Below are positions 1 through 47,272 of a stretch of DNA of 64,000 nucleotides, one piece after another. The notes beneath the pieces are model-generated. The model saw only the letters and a list, made by a program, of their open reading frames with translations. It was not told where the DNA came from and did no database searches. The DNA comes from a virus. The stretch spans positions 1 to 64,000 of IMG/VR virus record IMGVR_UViG_3300012984_000001. The stretch is one strand, 5' to 3'. Within the stretch, counting starts at the first letter, position 1, and every line of letters starts with the position of its first letter. The translations under genes and the position numbers were made by a program.

Positions 1-272
1 CAGACATTGTTACTGAGCACGTATTGGCATTTGCCGAAGAAAATCCAGAAAAATATATTGCTTACACAGAAGACCCTGGAATCAAAATGAAAGGAGTTAT
101 CAAAAGCGCGCTTGCTTCTGGAGATTTGATTTACAGCAATTATCGTTGGTTGAACGCAAATCGAGAAGTTATACTCGAAGTTTCTAAAAATCAAGATGAA
201 ATGGATGAAATGGTCAGATATTTTGAAGGAGGAATCGGAAGAACTTACTATGAGTTCCTTGTAAATAAATAA
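1..272 (+). CDS. C-terminal part of a phage protein (start lies before the window)
   Basis: Reading frame is open from the window edge to TAA at 270-272; function not recognisable. Confidence 0.6.
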   Translation, partial: DIVTEHVLAFAEENPEKYIAYTEDPGIKMKGVIKSALASGDLIYSNYRWLNANREVILEVSKNQDEMDEMVRYFEGGIGRTYYEFLVNK

Positions 273-286
273 TTTTTAAAAAACAC

Positions 287-318
287 TTGTTTCTTAAAAT
301 AAAAAATACCTATATTTG
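287..318 (+). promoter_or_regulatory. Bacteroidota sigma70-type promoter for leader 1 / tRNA block 1
   Basis: -7 element TATATTTG at 311-318 with a TTG-containing -33 region upstream. Confidence 0.7.
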
Positions 319-341
319 TAACTGAAAATAAACATTAAAAA

Positions 342-416
342 ATGCTAAGTATAAACACGATAAATATGATTGCTAGAGTTGGGGATAACTTCCCAAGCAA
401 GAGGTTTATGGTGTAA
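342..416 (+). CDS. Attenuator leader peptide 1 (MLSINTINMIARVGDNFPSKRFMV)
   Basis: 24-aa ORF with A-rich start context between promoter and terminator; codons 4-16 are all read by block-1 tRNAs; contains antiterminator strand AAGAGGTTT (399-407). Confidence 0.85.
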   Translation: MLSINTINMIARVGDNFPSKRFMV

Positions 417-438
417 ATTAAACAAATTACAAATATAT

Positions 439-475
439 AAAAGCCTCTTAATAAATTTAAGAGGCTTTTTGTTTT
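439..475 (+). terminator. Attenuator terminator 1
   Basis: AAAAGCCTCTTAA/TTAAGAGGCTTTT hairpin plus T-rich tail ending at the first base before tRNA-Ala. Confidence 0.85.
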
Positions 476-547
476 GGGAGATTCGTATAGTGGTTATTAC
501 AATAGTTTTGCAAACTATAAACACGGTTTCGATTACCGTATCCTCCA
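476..547 (+). tRNA. tRNA-Ala(TGC)
   Basis: Anticodon arm ATAGT-TTTGCAA-ACTAT, G3.U70 pair, TTCGATT T-loop. Confidence 0.85.
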
Positions 548-560
548 CAGAAATAAATAT

Positions 561-633
561 TCGTGTGTATTTCAGTTGGTAGAAAGCAATCCTGATAAGA
601 TTGTATGCGAAGGTTCAAGTCCTTCCGCACGAA
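561..633 (+). tRNA. tRNA-Ile(GAT)
   Basis: Cloverleaf; CAATC-CTGATAA-GATTG. Confidence 0.9.
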
Positions 634-639
634 CAAATT

Positions 640-711
640 GCGAGTATGGTGTAAAGGCTAACATAGGAGACTTCCAATCTTTTGATAACAGTTCGAGTCT
701 GTTTATTCGCT
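640..711 (+). tRNA. tRNA-Gly(TCC)
   Basis: Cloverleaf; GGAGA-CTTCCAA-TCTTT; U73. Confidence 0.9.
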
Positions 712-715
712 CAAT

Positions 716-787
716 GGTCTATTTGTGTAATGGTAGCAGTACTGGCTTGTCACGCCAGAGGCGAGAGTTCGATTCTCTCATAGACCG
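716..787 (+). tRNA. tRNA-Asp(GTC)
   Basis: Cloverleaf; CTGGC-TTGTCAC-GCCAG; G73. Confidence 0.9.
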
Positions 788-791
788 CAAT

Positions 792-862
792 GGCTTAGGT
801 AGTTTAATGGTAAAACACTTCTCTTGTAAAGAAGATACGGGGTTCGAATCCCACGTAAGCCT
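792..862 (+). tRNA. tRNA-Thr(TGT)
   Basis: CTTCT-CTTGTAA-AGAAG anticodon arm; imperfect T/acceptor stems. Confidence 0.8.
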
Positions 863-866
863 CAAT

Positions 867-937
867 ACCTTGTTTGCATAATGGAAGTGCCGATGTTTTA
901 CATGCATCTGGCGGTAGTTCGATTCTACCACAAGGTA
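867..937 (+). tRNA. tRNA-Val(TAC)
   Basis: Cloverleaf; GATGT-TTTACAT-GCATC. Confidence 0.9.
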
Positions 938-943
938 CAAATT

Positions 944-1016
944 GTCGGTATAGCATAAATGGAAATGCAGAACACTTCTAATGTTCCGATTGGCAGTTCG
1001 AATCTGTCTATCGACT
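944..1016 (+). tRNA. tRNA-Arg(TCT)
   Basis: Cloverleaf; GAACA-CTTCTAA-TGTTC. Confidence 0.9.
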
Positions 1017-1025
1017 CAATTAAAT

Positions 1026-1098
1026 CGCCTCGTAGCTCAATCGGTGGAGCAGCGCACTCATAATGCGAAGGTCAAGAGTTCGAAACTCTTCGAGGCAA
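1026..1098 (+). tRNA. tRNA(CAT): elongator Met or Ile2 (lysidine)
   Basis: Cloverleaf, loop CTCATAA, C1.A72 mismatch but no GGG/CCC anticodon stem; identity not resolvable by eye. Confidence 0.85.
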
Positions 1099-1103
1099 CA
1101 AAA

Positions 1104-1176
1104 GATTTCATAGCTTTAATGGTAGAGCGTCCGACTGTTAATCGGGTGGTTGAAGGTTCGAATCCTTCTGAAATCG
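1104..1176 (+). tRNA. tRNA-Asn(GTT)
   Basis: Cloverleaf; TCCGA-CTGTTAA-TCGGG; G73. Confidence 0.9.
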
Positions 1177-1185
1177 CAAAATAAA

Positions 1186-1216
1186 TTTGGTAATCCAAAA
1201 TTTTATTTTAAATTTG
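1186..1216 (+). promoter_or_regulatory. Internal promoter for tRNA-fMet / leader 2 / tRNA block 2
   Basis: TTTG (~1186) and TAAATTTG (1209-1216) match the Bacteroidota -33/-7 consensus. Confidence 0.7.
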
Positions 1217-1219
1217 CAT

Positions 1220-1292
1220 TGTGAGATAGAGCAGTTGGTAGCTCGTGTGGCTCATAACCATAAGGTCACGGGTTCGAATCCCGTTCTCGCAA
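1220..1292 (+). tRNA. tRNA-fMet-like (CAT)
   Basis: Initiator-type D-arm GAGC-AGTTGGTA-GCTC (A11-U24), TGTGG-CTCATAA-CCATA. Confidence 0.85.
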
Positions 1293-1306
1293 CTAAAAAA
1301 TACATT

Positions 1307-1378
1307 ATGAAAAATTTAAGTTTTTGTTTATCTTATTGGTTGTCGTTTAAATACGATACGGGATTTGATATGCAATAA
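1307..1378 (+). CDS. Attenuator leader peptide 2 (MKNLSFCLSYWLSFKYDTGFDMQ)
   Basis: 23-aa ORF; codons 4-14 are all read by block-2 tRNAs; antiterminator strand ACGGGATT (1358-1365). Confidence 0.88.
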   Translation: MKNLSFCLSYWLSFKYDTGFDMQ

Positions 1379-1406
1379 TTAAAAAAAATAATTGTATTTA
1401 AAATTT

Positions 1407-1437
1407 AATCCCGTTCGAAAGTTCGGGATTTTTTTTT
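1407..1437 (+). terminator. Attenuator terminator 2
   Basis: AATCCCG/CGGGATT hairpin plus long T run, 3 nt before tRNA-Tyr. Confidence 0.85.
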
Positions 1438-1440
1438 ATT

Positions 1441-1509
1441 GGGAGTAATTCTTCGGAGAAGCCAGCTCTGTAAAAGCTCAAATAGTAGGTTCGATTCCTT
1501 CTACTCCCA
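1441..1509 (+). tRNA. tRNA-Tyr(GTA), atypically short
   Basis: GGGAGTA/TACTCCC acceptor, AGCT-CTGTAAA-AGCT, tiny D-arm, no long variable arm. Confidence 0.75.
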
Positions 1510-1512
1510 CTT

Positions 1513-1585
1513 AGGCGTATGGTGAAATGGTAAGCACAACAGTTTTAAGAGCTGTCAATTGCGAGTTCGAGTCTCGCTACGCCCA
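1513..1585 (+). tRNA. tRNA-Leu(TAA), short variable loop
   Basis: ACAGT-TTTAAGA-GCTGT; GCGAG-TTCGAGT-CTCGC. Confidence 0.85.
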
Positions 1586-1591
1586 CAAAAA

Positions 1592-1678
1592 GGAAGGACA
1601 AGCCAATTGGTGGTGGCCGCAGTCTTGAAAACTGTTAGGAGTTAATGACTCGTGTGGGTTCGACTCCCACTTCTTCCG
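1592..1678 (+). tRNA. tRNA-Ser(TGA)
   Basis: GCAGT-CTTGAAA-ACTGT, long variable arm, G73. Confidence 0.9.
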
Positions 1679-1683
1679 CAAAT

Positions 1684-1766
1684 AGAAAGTGAAACACATA
1701 GGATGTGTGCCTCCCTGCTAAGGAGTGCGAGGGTAAAACCTTTAGTTTCGAATACTACTCTTTCTG
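1684..1766 (+). tRNA. tRNA-Ser(GCT)
   Basis: CTCC-CTGCTAA-GGAG, long variable arm, G73; atypical D-arm. Confidence 0.8.
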
Positions 1767-1770
1767 CAAT

Positions 1771-1841
1771 GCTTCTCAACGTAGGTTGTGTCAATCGGTC
1801 TCCAAAACCGTATTGTAAAGGTTCGAATCCTTTGAGTTGCG
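1771..1841 (+). tRNA. tRNA-Trp(CCA)
   Basis: CGGT-CTCCAAA-ACCG; good T-arm; weak acceptor and D stems. Confidence 0.75.
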
Positions 1842-1846
1842 CTATT

Positions 1847-1919
1847 GGGAATATGGCAGATAAGGTTATTGCGGAGGACTGAAAATCCTTAGGAGTTGGG
1901 TCGGTACCAACTGTTCCCA
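1847..1919 (+). tRNA. tRNA-Phe(GAA)
   Basis: GAGGA-CTGAAAA-TCCTT; non-canonical T-loop GTCGGTA. Confidence 0.85.
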
Positions 1920-1924
1920 CAAAT

Positions 1925-1995
1925 ATCAGGAATGCTGATGGTGAAGCGAATGGATTGCAAACTCATTTTTATCGGTTCGATTCCGATTCCTGATT
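1925..1995 (+). tRNA. tRNA-Cys(GCA)
   Basis: Loop TTGCAAA, U73 discriminator, ATCAGGA/TCCTGAT acceptor. Confidence 0.8.
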
Positions 1996-2004
1996 CTAAA
2001 ATAG

Positions 2005-2076
2005 TGACTCATAAGCGATTCGAACGCCTATCCTCGGATTCGTAGTCCGAAATTCTATCCATTGAAATAATGAGCC
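2005..2076 (-). tRNA. tRNA-Arg(ACG)
   Basis: Minus-strand cloverleaf; TCGGA-CTACGAA-TCCGA. Confidence 0.9.
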
Positions 2077-2079
2077 TTA

Positions 2080-2164
2080 TGGTGCGAAGTGTGGGAGTCG
2101 AACCCACAAAGCTACAATATTCTAAGTATTGCCACTATTCCTTTCGTTGTTAAGCCAACTTCGC
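2080..2164 (-). tRNA. tRNA-Leu(TAG)
   Basis: CAATA-CTTAGAA-TATTG; encoded CCA; atypical D region. Confidence 0.8.
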
Positions 2165-2169
2165 TTTAG

Positions 2170-2242
2170 GGTGTAATGTGAGAATCGAACTCACGTTTTT
2201 TGCTTCACAGGCAAACGACTTAACCGTTAGTCCAAAAACACC
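2170..2242 (-). tRNA. tRNA-His(GTG)
   Basis: TTTGC-CTGTGAA-GCAAA; G-1/C73. Confidence 0.9.
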
Positions 2243-2247
2243 ATTTG

Positions 2248-2319
2248 TAGGAGTATCAAGAATCGAACTTGAATAACTAGAGTCAAAGTCTAGTATAATA
2301 ACCATTATATCATACTCCA
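2248..2319 (-). tRNA. tRNA-Gln(TTG)
   Basis: CTAGA-CTTTGAC-TCTAG. Confidence 0.9.
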
Positions 2320-2324
2320 ATTTG

Positions 2325-2396
2325 CATTCCGTATGGGAATCGAACCCATGTCTCCTGATAGAAAGTCAGACGTGTTAACCACTTCACTAACGGAAC
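2325..2396 (-). tRNA. tRNA-Glu(TTC)
   Basis: TCTGA-CTTTCTA-TCAGG. Confidence 0.9.
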
Positions 2397-2402
2397 TTTT
2401 TG

Positions 2403-2473
2403 TCTAATAGTCAGGATTTGAACCTGAGTACTCCTCCTTCCAAGGGAGGCATGAAACCGTGCTTCGCTACTAG
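2403..2473 (-). tRNA. tRNA-Pro(TGG)
   Basis: CCTCC-CTTGGAA-GGAGG; C1-G72, A73. Confidence 0.85.
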
Positions 2474-2477
2474 AAAT

Positions 2478-2509
2478 AAAAAAAACCACTCTGATTAAGA
2501 GTGGTTTTT
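2478..2509 (-). terminator. Attenuator terminator 3
   Basis: AAAAACCACTCT/AGAGTGGTTTTT hairpin with U8 tail on the minus strand, 4 nt before tRNA-Pro. Confidence 0.85.
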
Positions 2510-2532
2510 AAGTTTTTATATTGATAACAACA

Positions 2533-2604
2533 CTATACAGAAATTCCACCCATAAGTAAATTATGTTGCGGAAGGCGTTCAATATTATTTTTAATAGTTT
2601 TCAT
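2533..2604 (-). CDS. Attenuator leader peptide 3 (MKTIKNNIERLPQHNLLMGGISV)
   Basis: 23-aa ORF; codons 9-14 GAA CGC CTT CCG CAA CAT match the six block-3 tRNAs; antiterminator strand GGGTGG (2546-2551). Confidence 0.9.
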   Translation of the reverse strand: MKTIKNNIERLPQHNLLMGGISV

Positions 2605-2608
2605 GTTG

Positions 2609-2616
2609 CAAACATA
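2609..2616 (-). promoter_or_regulatory. -7 promoter element for leader 3 / tRNA block 3
   Basis: TATGTTTG on minus strand 4 nt upstream of the leader ATG (near-leaderless transcript). Confidence 0.65.
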
Positions 2617-2670
2617 TAAAATATTTTTTATATATACACTATGATTTAAATATTATATTACATTAAACTT

Positions 2671-2700
2671 TTGTTGTTCTTTATTTTTTATCTTTGTTTT
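2671..2700 (+). promoter_or_regulatory. Promoter of tail/structural operon
   Basis: TATCTTTG at 2689-2696; TTGTTGTT...TATCTTTGTTTT also found at 52813-52840. Confidence 0.6.
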
Positions 2701-2713
2701 AAAATAATTAAAG

Positions 2714-3451
2714 ATGATTTCTATCAACAAATTCCGAAATACAATACTGTTCTTGCTTGAAAAGAATAATCGTGGTTTTTTGGGGCCACAAGTTCTTGAT
2801 TCATTTGTTGACTTGGCTCAAATTGAAATTTTTGAGAATCTATTTTTTCAATACAACAAATGGCTAAACAATCAATCAAGACATTTAGCAAATACAGAGT
2901 TTGCGGATATTCCAAAAAACATTAAAGAACAGATTGATTATTTTTCTGAATACTCAACGACAGGGAATTTCACGTATGATGCTCCAAATGATGTATGGAA
3001 ATACAACGGAACTGATATTTTATACAGAACAGAAGGATTGTCGTTGGTAAATTCTTCTGGAAAAAAAGTAGATATTGAGGAAGTTTCTAAAGGTTCCGCA
3101 TGGAATAACATGATAAACTCAAAAATAAATCCACCATCTGTGACATTTCCTATTTACACAAAAATAAAAGATGGGTACCGTGTTGCTCCAAAAGCAACTA
3201 CAGGATATAGCGTTGAATTATTTTTCATAAGAAGACCAAAGGCTCCAAAATGGACTTATATCGAAGATGCAAACGGAAATCCATTGTTTAATGCTGGAGC
3301 GTCCGATAGACAAGATATAGAATTGGATGAAAGTTTGTTTTATCCGCTTGTAATGAAAGTAATGTCGTTTTGTGGACTTTCAATACAAGAATCAGAAATA
3401 TTAACCGCTGCAGCAAATGCAGAAATAGCAATCGATCAGAAGCAATCATAA
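2714..3451 (+). CDS. Virion structural protein (tail ring/adaptor-like)
   Basis: 245 aa, first gene of the structural operon; resembles ring proteins of Bacteroidota podoviruses; assignment by recall and synteny. Confidence 0.6.
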   Translation: MISINKFRNTILFLLEKNNRGFLGPQVLDSFVDLAQIEIFENLFFQYNKWLNNQSRHLANTEFADIPKNIKEQIDYFSEYSTTGNFTYDAPNDVWKYNGTDILYRTEGLSLVNSSGKKVDIEEVSKGSAWNNMINSKINPPSVTFPIYTKIKDGYRVAPKATTGYSVELFFIRRPKAPKWTYIEDANGNPLFNAGASDRQDIELDESLFYPLVMKVMSFCGLSIQESEILTAAANAEIAIDQKQS

Positions 3452-3454
3452 GTT

Positions 3455-4378
3455 ATGAGTTCAATGAATCCTGCCGAATATTATGAAAATGAAGACAACC
3501 ATGGTAGTTATCAATACGTAAACCTAGAGGAGTTGGTTATAAATTTCTTGACTGACTGGACTGGTGACGGAAAAATTTTAAATAAAGTGTCTCGTGCAAA
3601 AGTTATAGCCAAATTCAAGCAAGGGATAAAAAAGTTTAACATGAACGCATTGCGCGCGAAAAAAACTGTAGAACTAGAACTTGGAGACACTTTAGATATT
3701 ATTATGCCCCCGGATTATCTCAATTGGGTGAGAATTTCTTATGTGAACCCAGAAACAGGTGAATTGATGGGTTTATCCAGAAATGACAAAATCCCTATGG
3801 GAAGTGCGTACTTACAAGATGATAAAGCTGATATTCTTTTCGATGATGAAGGATTTATTTTAGAAGGAACTACGTATTATGATGAATTAAATGACACAAT
3901 AAACTTAAACAAAAGAACTTTTTTAGGTTATATGGATTGTGGATGCATCGGAAATTATGTCGGATATTGGGGTGGTTACGGGTATGATTATTCGTATATG
4001 CCGACTCCTCCTCCTACAAATTTTCTTCTTGACCCGTCTCAAAATGCAAACGGTTATTTCAACATAGACCAAGAACAAGGCAGAATTCATTTTAGTTCAG
4101 ATAATGCGAGTAGAGTTATAATGCTTGACTATATCTCAGATGGTTTGCAACACGCAAAAGATACTGATGTAAAAGTGATAAAACTTGCAGAAGAGGCTCT
4201 TTATAATTTCGTTAACTACGAATTAATGAAGACTCTGAATAATGTTCATATGTATGAGAAACGAGATGCTAGAAGAGCATGGGAAGCGGAATACAAAAAT
4301 GCTAAAATAGCAATGATGGATATTAAAATTGACGACGTTATGTTGTTTTTAAACGCTAAGAATCGATGGGTACATTAA
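3455..4378 (+). CDS. Virion structural protein (tail tubular/ring-like)
   Basis: 307 aa; PPDYLNWVRIS and LDYISDG motifs; directly precedes the stabilisation protein. Confidence 0.6.
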   Translation: MSSMNPAEYYENEDNHGSYQYVNLEELVINFLTDWTGDGKILNKVSRAKVIAKFKQGIKKFNMNALRAKKTVELELGDTLDIIMPPDYLNWVRISYVNPETGELMGLSRNDKIPMGSAYLQDDKADILFDDEGFILEGTTYYDELNDTINLNKRTFLGYMDCGCIGNYVGYWGGYGYDYSYMPTPPPTNFLLDPSQNANGYFNIDQEQGRIHFSSDNASRVIMLDYISDGLQHAKDTDVKVIKLAEEALYNFVNYELMKTLNNVHMYEKRDARRAWEAEYKNAKIAMMDIKIDDVMLFLNAKNRWVH

Positions 4379-46899: not shown

Positions 46900-46972
46900 T
46901 TCCACATAGCTCAGTCGGTAGAGCAAATGACTCATAATCATTAGGTCACAGGTTCAATCCCTGTTGTGGAAA
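46900..46972 (+). tRNA. tRNA(CAT): Met or Ile2
   Basis: Cloverleaf; AATGA-CTCATAA-TCATT. Confidence 0.88.
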
Positions 46973-46973
46973 C

Positions 46974-47272
46974 AATTAAGTTGTTAAGTTCTTTAATTTT
47001 TTGTTTGGACGGGAGTTCGACTCTCCCCGACTCCACGAATCGAGTCCGTGTAAAGTGTTCGATGGTTTGGCACACCGATATACAAAGTGCTATTTTTGGG
47101 GTCGCCTGGTTTTGACAGCAAAGCGAATTAGAAGAAATAGACTTAATTAAAAATAACTGCAAAAGTTATAAACCTTTTTGGAAACGAAGCAAAACTTGCT
47201 GCGTAATCAACGAAATTTGTGATAGCGAAAATATCACTAAACAGCCGGAGGAGATTACTTCAAATCCGGTTT
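46974..47272 (+). ncRNA. ssrA: Circularly permuted (two-piece) tmRNA
   Basis: T-arm plus 3' acceptor strand CGACTCC-A (47011-47035) lies upstream of 5' strand GGGGTCG (47098); G3.U70; tag frame 47159-47206 AKVINLFGNEAKLAA*. Confidence 0.88.

Follow-up and report, generated by a model that had tools for sequence, protein, structure and literature searches.

The stretch of DNA analysed here, the window, comprises positions 1 to 64,000 of IMG/VR virus record IMGVR_UViG_3300012984_000001. The virus genome is complete at 75,694 bp and carries direct terminal repeats, and the window is its first 64 kb. One sequencing run, a soil-metagenome DNA run and possibly the source, carries the whole stretch, and no RNA sequencing run was found that covers 280-2650. 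The transfer RNA (tRNA) genes of the phage are closest in likeness to those of Cellulophaga and Tenacibaculum phages. Between 280 and 2620, ARAGORN and Rfam detect 23 tRNA genes, organized in three blocks and one solitary tRNA. The focus of this work is the first block together with the short open reading frame (ORF) and terminator ahead of it, termed Module 1, which we propose to be a leader-peptide attenuator of tRNA transcription.

Block 1 (476-1177, plus strand, as is all of Module 1) is formed by nine genes: tRNA-Ala-TGC (476-548), tRNA-Ile-GAT (561-634), tRNA-Gly-TCC (640-712), tRNA-Asp-GTC (716-788), tRNA-Thr-TGT (792-863), tRNA-Val-TAC (867-938), tRNA-Arg-TCT (944-1017), an Ile2-like tRNA with CAT anticodon (1026-1099) and tRNA-Asn-GTT (1104-1177). 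A Bacteroidota-type -7 promoter box, TAnnTTTG (311-318), is located 23 nt 5' of the ATG of a predicted leader ORF of 24 codons (342-416, ATG to TAA), which in turn lies ahead of the terminator and the tRNA block. The box is kept in the alignment of four Module-1 homologues and is consistent with a promoter, a motif match being no proof; across the window the motif occurs without enrichment (110 found, 98 expected). A sigma-70 promoter scan was set aside as not meaningful for this host group. Downstream of the ORF follows an intrinsic terminator (439-475, -16.2 kcal/mol) with a 13-bp stem (439-451 with 457-469), a loop at 452-456 and a T-run to 475 that ends right at the first base of tRNA-Ala (476).

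Codons 4-16 of the leader (351-389) read ATA AAC ACG ATA AAT ATG ATT GCT AGA GTT GGG GAT AAC, and this 13-codon sensor run is confined to the nine amino acids of block 1 and includes each of them. A sequence-only reading of the locus had quoted the same codons, listed the block as Ala, Ile-GAU, Gly, Asp, Thr, Val, Arg-UCU, CAU and Asn, and stated that the run covers all nine; the codons stand as quoted, ARAGORN and Rfam return the same nine tRNAs, and the coverage is exact. The layout of Module 1 is repeated at both other tRNA blocks of the window. Module 2 (1307-1996, plus strand) consists of a leader ORF (1307-1378) with its run at 1316-1348, a terminator (1407-1440) and the tRNAs Tyr, Leu-TAA, Ser-TGA, Ser-GCT, Trp, Phe and Cys (1441-1996). 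Module 3 (2004-2616, minus strand) has a -7 box (2616-2609), a leader ORF (2604-2533) with its run at 2580-2563, a terminator (2509-2481) and the tRNAs Pro, Glu, Gln, His, Leu-TAG and Arg-ACG (2476-2004), where the Leu-TAG anticodon was taken from the sequence of 2083-2164, a tRNA that the relaxed ARAGORN run miscalled.

The six-frame translation of the 75,694-bp genome was searched for runs built solely from the amino acids of one block and including every one of them. For the block-1 set there is exactly one in ~151,000 codon positions, namely the leader run at 351. The block-3 set likewise yields exactly one run genome-wide, at 2580 on the minus strand and just upstream of block 3, and the block-2 set four, one of which, at 1316, is just upstream of block 2. 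In 150 simulated genomes of first-order Markov composition a block-1-type run appeared 5 times, and the number of runs expected on the right strand and at most 150 nt upstream is ~3e-5 for block 1, 1.6e-3 for block 2 and 8e-4 for block 3. Given these expected counts, three matches in one locus cannot be coincidence.

Related viral contigs, designated here by L numbers, were gathered through searches with a neighbouring protein and with a leader DNA pattern. The Module 1 layout is found also in 7 relatives and cultured Flavobacteriia phages (Calle_1/phi38:1, phi4:1, phi10:1, phi19:1, Gundel_1 and Panino). L019 and L020 carry a Module-1 leader with its tRNA block, L004 a leader with a truncated block, and L011 and L012 a Module-2-type unit. 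In the cultured phages the arrangement is a -7 box, a short ORF, a hairpin with T-run and a tRNA block; the carriers are Tenacibaculum phage Gundel_1, Maribacter phage Panino and Cellulophaga phages phi19:1, phi10:1, Calle_1 and phi4:1, which their records assign to several different families, and Calle_1 is 99.4% identical to phi38:1, accession KC821614, across the Module-1-type leader region. A pattern scan of metagenomes for more Module-1 homologues returned none, and a search with the upstream protein recovered the L004 lineage alone. L032, obtained with a looser viral pattern, was rejected as a false positive inside a coding region.

In minimum free-energy folds of Module 1 lacking a ribosome, segment 1 (355-374) pairs with 396-414 in a trp-like 1:2 helix, with an energy of -21.4 kcal/mol when the inner hairpin is included. 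On the four-homologue alignment 82% of the cells of this helix are paired, compared to at most 52% in slid registers, and compensatory change is found at 2 pairs. The inner hairpin, described beforehand as TTGGGGA/TTCCCAA at 379-396 and indeed present there, has 7 bp (arms 379-385 and 390-396, -6.7 kcal/mol), lies inside the ORF at codons 13-18, and is 100% paired in the 4 homologues with one U:A to U:G change; a role as RNA polymerase pause hairpin is possible. Within segment 2, AAGAGGTTT at 399-407 constitutes the 5' half of the antiterminator and is complementary to AAGCCTCTT at 441-449. The sequence-only reading had proposed this very pairing, and both 9-mers are in place, the refinement being that the terminator stem extends over the full 13 bp given above. 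The pairing is retained in 88.6% of alignment cells (slid registers at most 73%). As a whole, 397-414 is able to pair with the terminator 5' arm, and the antiterminator fold of 397-451 amounts to -10.7 kcal/mol. Each Module-1 homologue builds its own terminator, with altered stem bases.

The effect of a ribosome was modelled by folding transcripts ended just before the terminator 3' arm while forcing the ribosome footprint, from 17 nt upstream to 11 nt downstream of the first A-site base, to be single-stranded. In this model the 5' arm of the Module 1 terminator is paired upstream with a probability of ~0.6 when the A site is at codons 2-16, and of 0.1-0.3 from codon 17 to the stop, i.e. the end of the sensor run is the last codon at which a stall would be productive. 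Most of the 24 leaders examined display the same drop at, or a few codons from, the end of the matched run. The antiterminator had been expected to compete during co-transcriptional folding, and in the footprint model it is available for A-site codons 2-16 and lost from codon 17; in full-length folds at equilibrium, considered further below, the terminator wins. In a control using dinucleotide-preserving shuffles of the segment between ribosome and terminator in 22 leaders, antiterminator pairing exceeds the shuffled mean in 22/22 and ranks in the top 5% in 12/22. The terminator sequences differ among the phages and the antiterminators change along with them; in Module 3, GGGTGG pairs with CCACTC in the window and GGAGG with CCTCC in L019.

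Based on these analyses, we propose that Module 1 is a trp-type, multivalent leader-peptide transcription attenuator gating a nine-gene tRNA operon, a reading predicted from sequence and folding models to which we assign a probability of about 0.77. Transcription would start near 325, and a ribosome would translate the 24-codon leader. Fast decoding of the 13-codon run would bring the ribosome to codons 17-24 and the stop, where it would cover segment 2 (397-414), permitting the terminator (439-469) to form and halting RNA polymerase before tRNA-Ala. If any one of the matching charged tRNAs were scarce, the ribosome would instead stall with its A site on codons 4-16, covering segment 1 and leaving segment 2 free to pair with the emerging terminator 5' arm, and the polymerase would read through into the block. 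The outcome would be negative feedback, with the tRNA set made on demand, and Modules 2 and 3 would act likewise on their own blocks. Candidate triggers are host tRNA loss late in infection or a tRNA-cleaving defence. We infer here that the leader ORF is translated, that termination and read-through take place in vivo, that the antiterminator is trapped kinetically, and what the physiological trigger may be.

Alternatively, the leader may be translated and codon-matched with stalling acting through RNase processing or decay of the precursor, or the hairpin and T-run may mainly serve as a signal for pausing, or for processing at the 5' end of the first tRNA. In support of this, the terminator adjoins the RNase P site of tRNA-Ala, a Lys-rich mini-ORF located before tRNA-Lys in relatives has a hairpin without a clear T-run, and equilibrium folds never remove the terminator. 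However, a canonical G+C-rich stem followed by at least 4 T is found directly before the first tRNA in 24/24 leaders, and each has, suitably spaced from the run, a stretch complementary to the 5' arm of the terminator, features that render processing an unlikely explanation compared to attenuation.

The match between leaders and blocks reaches the level of isoacceptors. Leader 1 uses AGA, in agreement with Arg-TCT of block 1 and not with Arg-ACG of block 3, leader 3 uses CGC and CTT along with Arg-ACG and Leu-TAG of block 3, and leader 2 combines TTA/TTG, AGT and TCT/TCG with Leu-TAA, Ser-GCT and Ser-TGA of block 2. This bears on the idea that the element senses amino-acid supply, i.e. charging, rather than tRNA abundance, which would tie phage tRNA synthesis to host nutrition. 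It is established for attenuation that a stalled ribosome cannot distinguish a missing from an uncharged tRNA. Yet amino-acid starvation is unrelieved by more tRNA, and the codons (AGA versus CGC for Arg, TTR versus CTN for Leu) are divided between leaders as the tRNAs are between blocks; since an amino-acid sensor has no reason to match isoacceptors, we consider sensing of charging very unlikely and favour a sensor of tRNA shortage.

Where blocks differ between phages, the leaders differ with them. The sole tRNA that varies among the Module-1 blocks is Lys: tRNA-Lys-TTT is accompanied by an AAA codon in L019, L020 and L004, and the window lacks both. tRNA-Asn resides in block 1 of the window, in block 2 of Calle_1 and phi4:1 and in block 3 of Gundel_1, and runs with Asn codons are present in the corresponding leaders. 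L011 and L012 have neither tRNA-Trp nor a Trp codon, and their Leu-TAG is paired with CTA/CTT in the leader; phi19:1 and Gundel_1 have no tRNA-Glu in block 3 and no Glu codon in the run; and Calle_1, phi4:1 and Panino contain Leu-TAA in block 3 and TTA codons in leader 3. The correspondence was quantified for 17 modules from 9 phages as the fraction of codons 3-16 decodable by a block. Not entered were L020_1, whose block is partly degenerate, L004_1, with a truncated or chimeric block, L012_2 and L019_2, which nearly duplicate L011_2 and win_2, L020_2, whose block runs off the contig, and Panino, a later addition. The decodable fraction is 0.75 for a leader's own block and 0.13 for blocks of other classes, and 0/100,000 shuffled leader-block pairings reach the observed total. 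No permutation within a class beats the real pairing, which is tied by 2/24, 2/720 and 12/5040 of them, all through identical blocks.

The four Module-1 leaders are under different constraints along their length. ORF length (24 codons), frame and stop position are the same in L019, L020 and L004 as in the window, indels are confined to the 5' untranslated region and the spacer after the stop, and codon 13 to the stop, where the RNA helices sit, is nearly invariant at the nucleotide level, while codons 2-12 vary freely but stay inside the set of the block. Leader 3 draws on one set of six amino acids in the window, L004 and L019 and arranges them differently in each of the three. If the short ORFs encoded functional micro-proteins with the codon match as a by-product, conservation of the C-terminal third of leader 1 in four phages and the annotation of some leader ORFs as hypothetical proteins could be accounted for; but residue order is scrambled between relatives with composition kept, the conserved C-terminal part coincides with RNA helices, and composition tracks the tRNA block, leaving this possibility highly improbable. 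That an unrelated small ORF and the terminator of an upstream gene merely happen to precede a tRNA block, as might be imagined from the many short ORFs in A+T-rich DNA and the lack of enrichment of the promoter motif, has a next to negligible chance of being right, given ~3e-5 runs expected at that position, a design that occurs in triplicate in the window and recurs, with co-variation, across 9 phages, and an upstream gene in L004 that ends in a separate terminator ahead of the leader promoter.

Several observations nevertheless weigh against attenuation by Module 1. Regarding the RNA, the terminator prevails (P at least 0.9) at any ribosome position when the full-length leader is folded to equilibrium, a property also shared by classical attenuators. 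Because the terminator wins at equilibrium, read-through must rest on a kinetic choice or trapping, a step that we infer. Conservation does not extend to the ribosome-free state, for which the modelled antiterminator probability lies anywhere between 0.01 and 0.95, and the 6-bp core of the antiterminator is invariant in the four homologues, hence there is no co-variation. For Module 1 of the window alone, 11/100 shuffles give equal antiterminator pairing (top 11%), and this modelled antiterminator is statistically weak when taken by itself. As for the codons, codons 2-3 of the leader are unserved by block 1, the run contains both ATA and ATG with only one CAU tRNA in the block, and leader 3 of both the window and L004 contains an early Asn-Asn pair with no tRNA-Asn in the block. 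Further mismatches comprise one Asn codon in leader 1 of Calle_1, TTG in leader 3 of L004 and AGA in leader 3 of Calle_1, and in L004 leader 1 is intact though most of block 1 is absent. Each sensed codon is present just one to three times, compared with the longer runs often seen in classical attenuator leaders, and sensitivity to mild shortage may therefore be low. Relatedness also inflates the permutation tests, and the independent events are few: about one for Lys, two or three for Asn, one for Trp, two for Leu and two for Glu, all in the expected direction. Finally, to our knowledge, coupling of transcription and translation is not established in Bacteroidota. On balance, the model implied by the sequence-only reading, in which a leader peptide and an antiterminator competing with a terminator regulate the tRNA block, is supported in silico by the unique run, by its recurrence in 17 modules from 9 phages with co-variation, and by footprint folding.

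The identity of the CAU tRNA of block 1 was also addressed. The phage carries three CAT tRNAs (1026-1099, 1220-1293 and 46900-46973). The nearest annotated relative of the block-1 gene is the RefSeq 'tRNA-Ile2' of IAS virus, with 83% identity over positions 8-64, and these two share with one CAT tRNA of phi4:1 an anticodon arm having a G27.A43 mismatch. The top of the acceptor stem displays a C1.A72 mismatch, which is kept in L019:5102-5175. Such a mismatch is a hallmark of bacterial initiator tRNA, yet D stem and anticodon stem are both elongator-type here. ATA and ATG are both kept in all four Module-1 leaders. In Gundel_1, the run of leader 3 has ATA but no internal ATG, and the block contains a CAT tRNA. 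A BLAST search of E. coli genomes with the CAT tRNA returned nothing beyond generic D-arm similarity to tRNA-Thr, and an alignment with a T4-like phage CAT tRNA was uninformative on its identity. The two ATA codons had been taken as a hint at Ile2: proximity to tRNA-Ile2 of IAS virus and retention of ATA in four leaders speak in favour, whereas retention of ATG and the C1.A72 mismatch speak against, so assignment of 1026-1099 as a putative tRNA-Ile2 is partly supported.

The second CAT tRNA (1220-1293, plus strand) is the solitary gene between blocks 1 and 2, preceded by a -7 box (1209-1216) and without a leader of its own. It possesses the initiator D-stem pair A11:U24, two of the three G:C pairs typical of an initiator anticodon stem (G30:C40 and G31:C39) and a weak U1:A72 pair, and it has near full-length matches in 291 phage records, some annotated as tRNA-fMet. 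The ATG of leader 2 follows 14 nt after this initiator-like gene, and because the interval (within 1209-1320) contains no promoter box, leader 2 would be part of a tRNA-mRNA co-transcript and start only after tRNA cleavage. The third CAT tRNA (46900-46973) is ordinary and elongator-like. Beside it, at 46987-47206, a permuted transfer-messenger RNA (tmRNA) is encoded (Rfam RF04321, 63.7 bits), and Maribacter phage Panino has an annotated tmRNA within its tRNA cluster (L033:4628-4960). Ribosome-rescue RNA and the proposed stall-sensing leaders coexist in these phages.

Additional features of the blocks and leaders are worth recording. The blocks are sorted by first codon base, with A- and G-starting codons in block 1, U-starting codons and Ser-AGY in block 2, and C-starting codons and Glu in block 3; the same three classes return in the cultured phages, with single tRNAs (Asn, Leu-TAA and Lys) shifting between them. 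Blocks 2 (plus strand) and 3 (minus strand) converge at 1996-2004 of the window, with 7 nt between the last tRNAs and no terminator, and read-through from either side would yield antisense tRNA transcripts. Exactly 4 nt lie between the end of the TAnnTTTG box and the ATG in leader 3 of the window (2604-2616, minus strand) and in the majority of class 2 and class 3 leaders from the relatives and cultured phages, among them L024:2871-2893, L024:3527-3543, L031:552-568 and L033:2378-2394. This spacing suggests leaderless mRNAs predicted to begin at or beside the start codon. Two leader ORFs are annotated as 'hypothetical protein', gp075 of phi4:1 (L030:851-970) and CDS0063 of Panino (L033:2377-2472), and both annotations extend to upstream TTG starts that overlap the promoter box.

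Individual relatives also show irregularities. At L004:4560-5280, Ile-GAT is fused directly to Ser-TGA, and Gly to Asn, the CAT tRNAs, leader 2, Tyr and Leu-TAA are absent, while leader 1 still names Asn, Thr, Val, Gly, Asp and Arg, the one clear breach of the matching rule; the junction reflects a recent deletion from one tRNA 3' end to another, or else a chimeric assembly. The Lys mini-ORF, nine codons with four Lys, lies between tRNA-Ala and tRNA-Lys in L019:5731-5790 (minus strand), L004:4647-4705 and L020:2160-2222, where a 7-bp hairpin lacking a clear T-run comes directly after it and then tRNA-Lys. The window has neither mini-ORF nor tRNA-Lys, and the mini-ORF may be a nested Lys-specific element that arrived with the tRNA-Lys insertion. 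At L020:2700-2960, the tRNA-like genes at the Arg-TCT, CAT and Asn positions hold insertions, escape detection by ARAGORN and may represent degenerate copies or structures of an unusual kind. An insertion in Gundel_1 (L024:3746-4252), an HNH endonuclease gene that has a promoter box of its own, parts the leader-3 terminator from the tRNA block and with it the sensor from the genes it would gate.

Leader-peptide attenuators are well known from trpL, hisL, pheL and leuL, the multivalent thrL (Thr and Ile) and ilvL (Ile, Leu and Val), and pheM for pheST. With the attenuators of amino-acid operons Module 1 has in common a short ORF with regulatory codons, translated there and predicted to be so here, a four-segment RNA, modelled here by folding (1:2, the 2:3 antiterminator and the 3:4 intrinsic terminator), and the proposed principle that a stalled ribosome frees segment 2 and a ribosome near the stop covers it. 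The helix energies of Module 1 (1:2, -21.4; 2:3, -10.7; 3:4, -16.2 kcal/mol) rank as in the E. coli trp leader. Nearest in mechanism are the thr and ilv leaders, where one leader answers to several amino acids, and pheM-pheST is the nearest case from the translation apparatus. In contrast to these systems, the phage leaders precede tRNA genes and not enzymes or synthetases, i.e. the sensed molecule and the product are of the same kind and the feedback would be direct. They also hold up to nine or ten codon families, each represented 1-3 times, instead of runs of one codon; their codon choice tracks isoacceptors; and they are phage-encoded in a Bacteroidota setting, have no Shine-Dalgarno sequence, and in some cases look leaderless. 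Relative to known attenuators, the novelty lies in the predicted tRNA-gene target, in a run of many codons matched to isoacceptors, and in the occurrence in phages and in a Bacteroidota context.

No Rfam leader family (Phe_leader, His_leader, Trp_leader and others) is detected at gathering score. Two sub-threshold matches, to Phe_leader at 2476-2546 on the minus strand (31.2 bits, cut-off 55) and to the trpB motif at 357-476 (28.1, cut-off 59), were rejected as indicating no membership. T-box riboswitches, of which there is no match at E up to 1 within 1-4000, similarly read the state of a specific tRNA and pick terminator or antiterminator upstream of translation-related genes; unlike the phage leaders, they bind uncharged tRNA directly without ribosome or ORF, respond to one tRNA each, and control synthetase and amino-acid genes. 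The nearest published system that we found is the trn operon of Anabaena PCC 7120, a normally silent extra tRNA set switched on when translation is impaired (PMC8421152). It resembles the phage modules, as proposed to work here, in this induction, and differs in being bacterial and controlled at the promoter, via direct repeats and the repressor TrcR (PMC8421152, PMC10272220); the main text of PMC8421152 does not contain 'leader peptide', 'attenuat' or 'terminator'. In the full-text literature, whose coverage leaves out most subscription journals, no account of leader-peptide control of tRNA genes was found. An RNA-seq time series of phi38:1 infection is published (PMC5335546), and that paper does not discuss regulation of the phage tRNAs.

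In conclusion, the arrangement described here touches an old open question, namely why phages carry tRNA genes and when these are used. Going beyond Module 1, we tentatively sketch a wider scheme, against which the odds remain somewhat tilted: phage tRNA blocks may be inducible spare parts, each having a ribosome sensor of codon resolution that turns it on once any one of its isoacceptors runs short, with the shortage arising from a host anticodon-nuclease defence or from phage-driven loss of host tRNA. In such a scheme the codon list of a leader would be a record of what each tRNA decodes, ATA marking the CAU tRNA as Ile2, and relocation of a tRNA would be followed by rewriting of the leader. 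As the same design exists in cultured phage-host pairs, including phi38:1 with its published RNA-seq, the idea is directly testable. If attenuation by these leaders is true, agreement of leader codons with block anticodons would provide a simple signature for annotating tRNA arrays and ambiguous tRNAs, leader-peptide attenuation would extend to RNA genes and to phages of Bacteroidota, and phage tRNAs would represent a regulated, demand-driven supply rather than a constitutive patch for codon bias.

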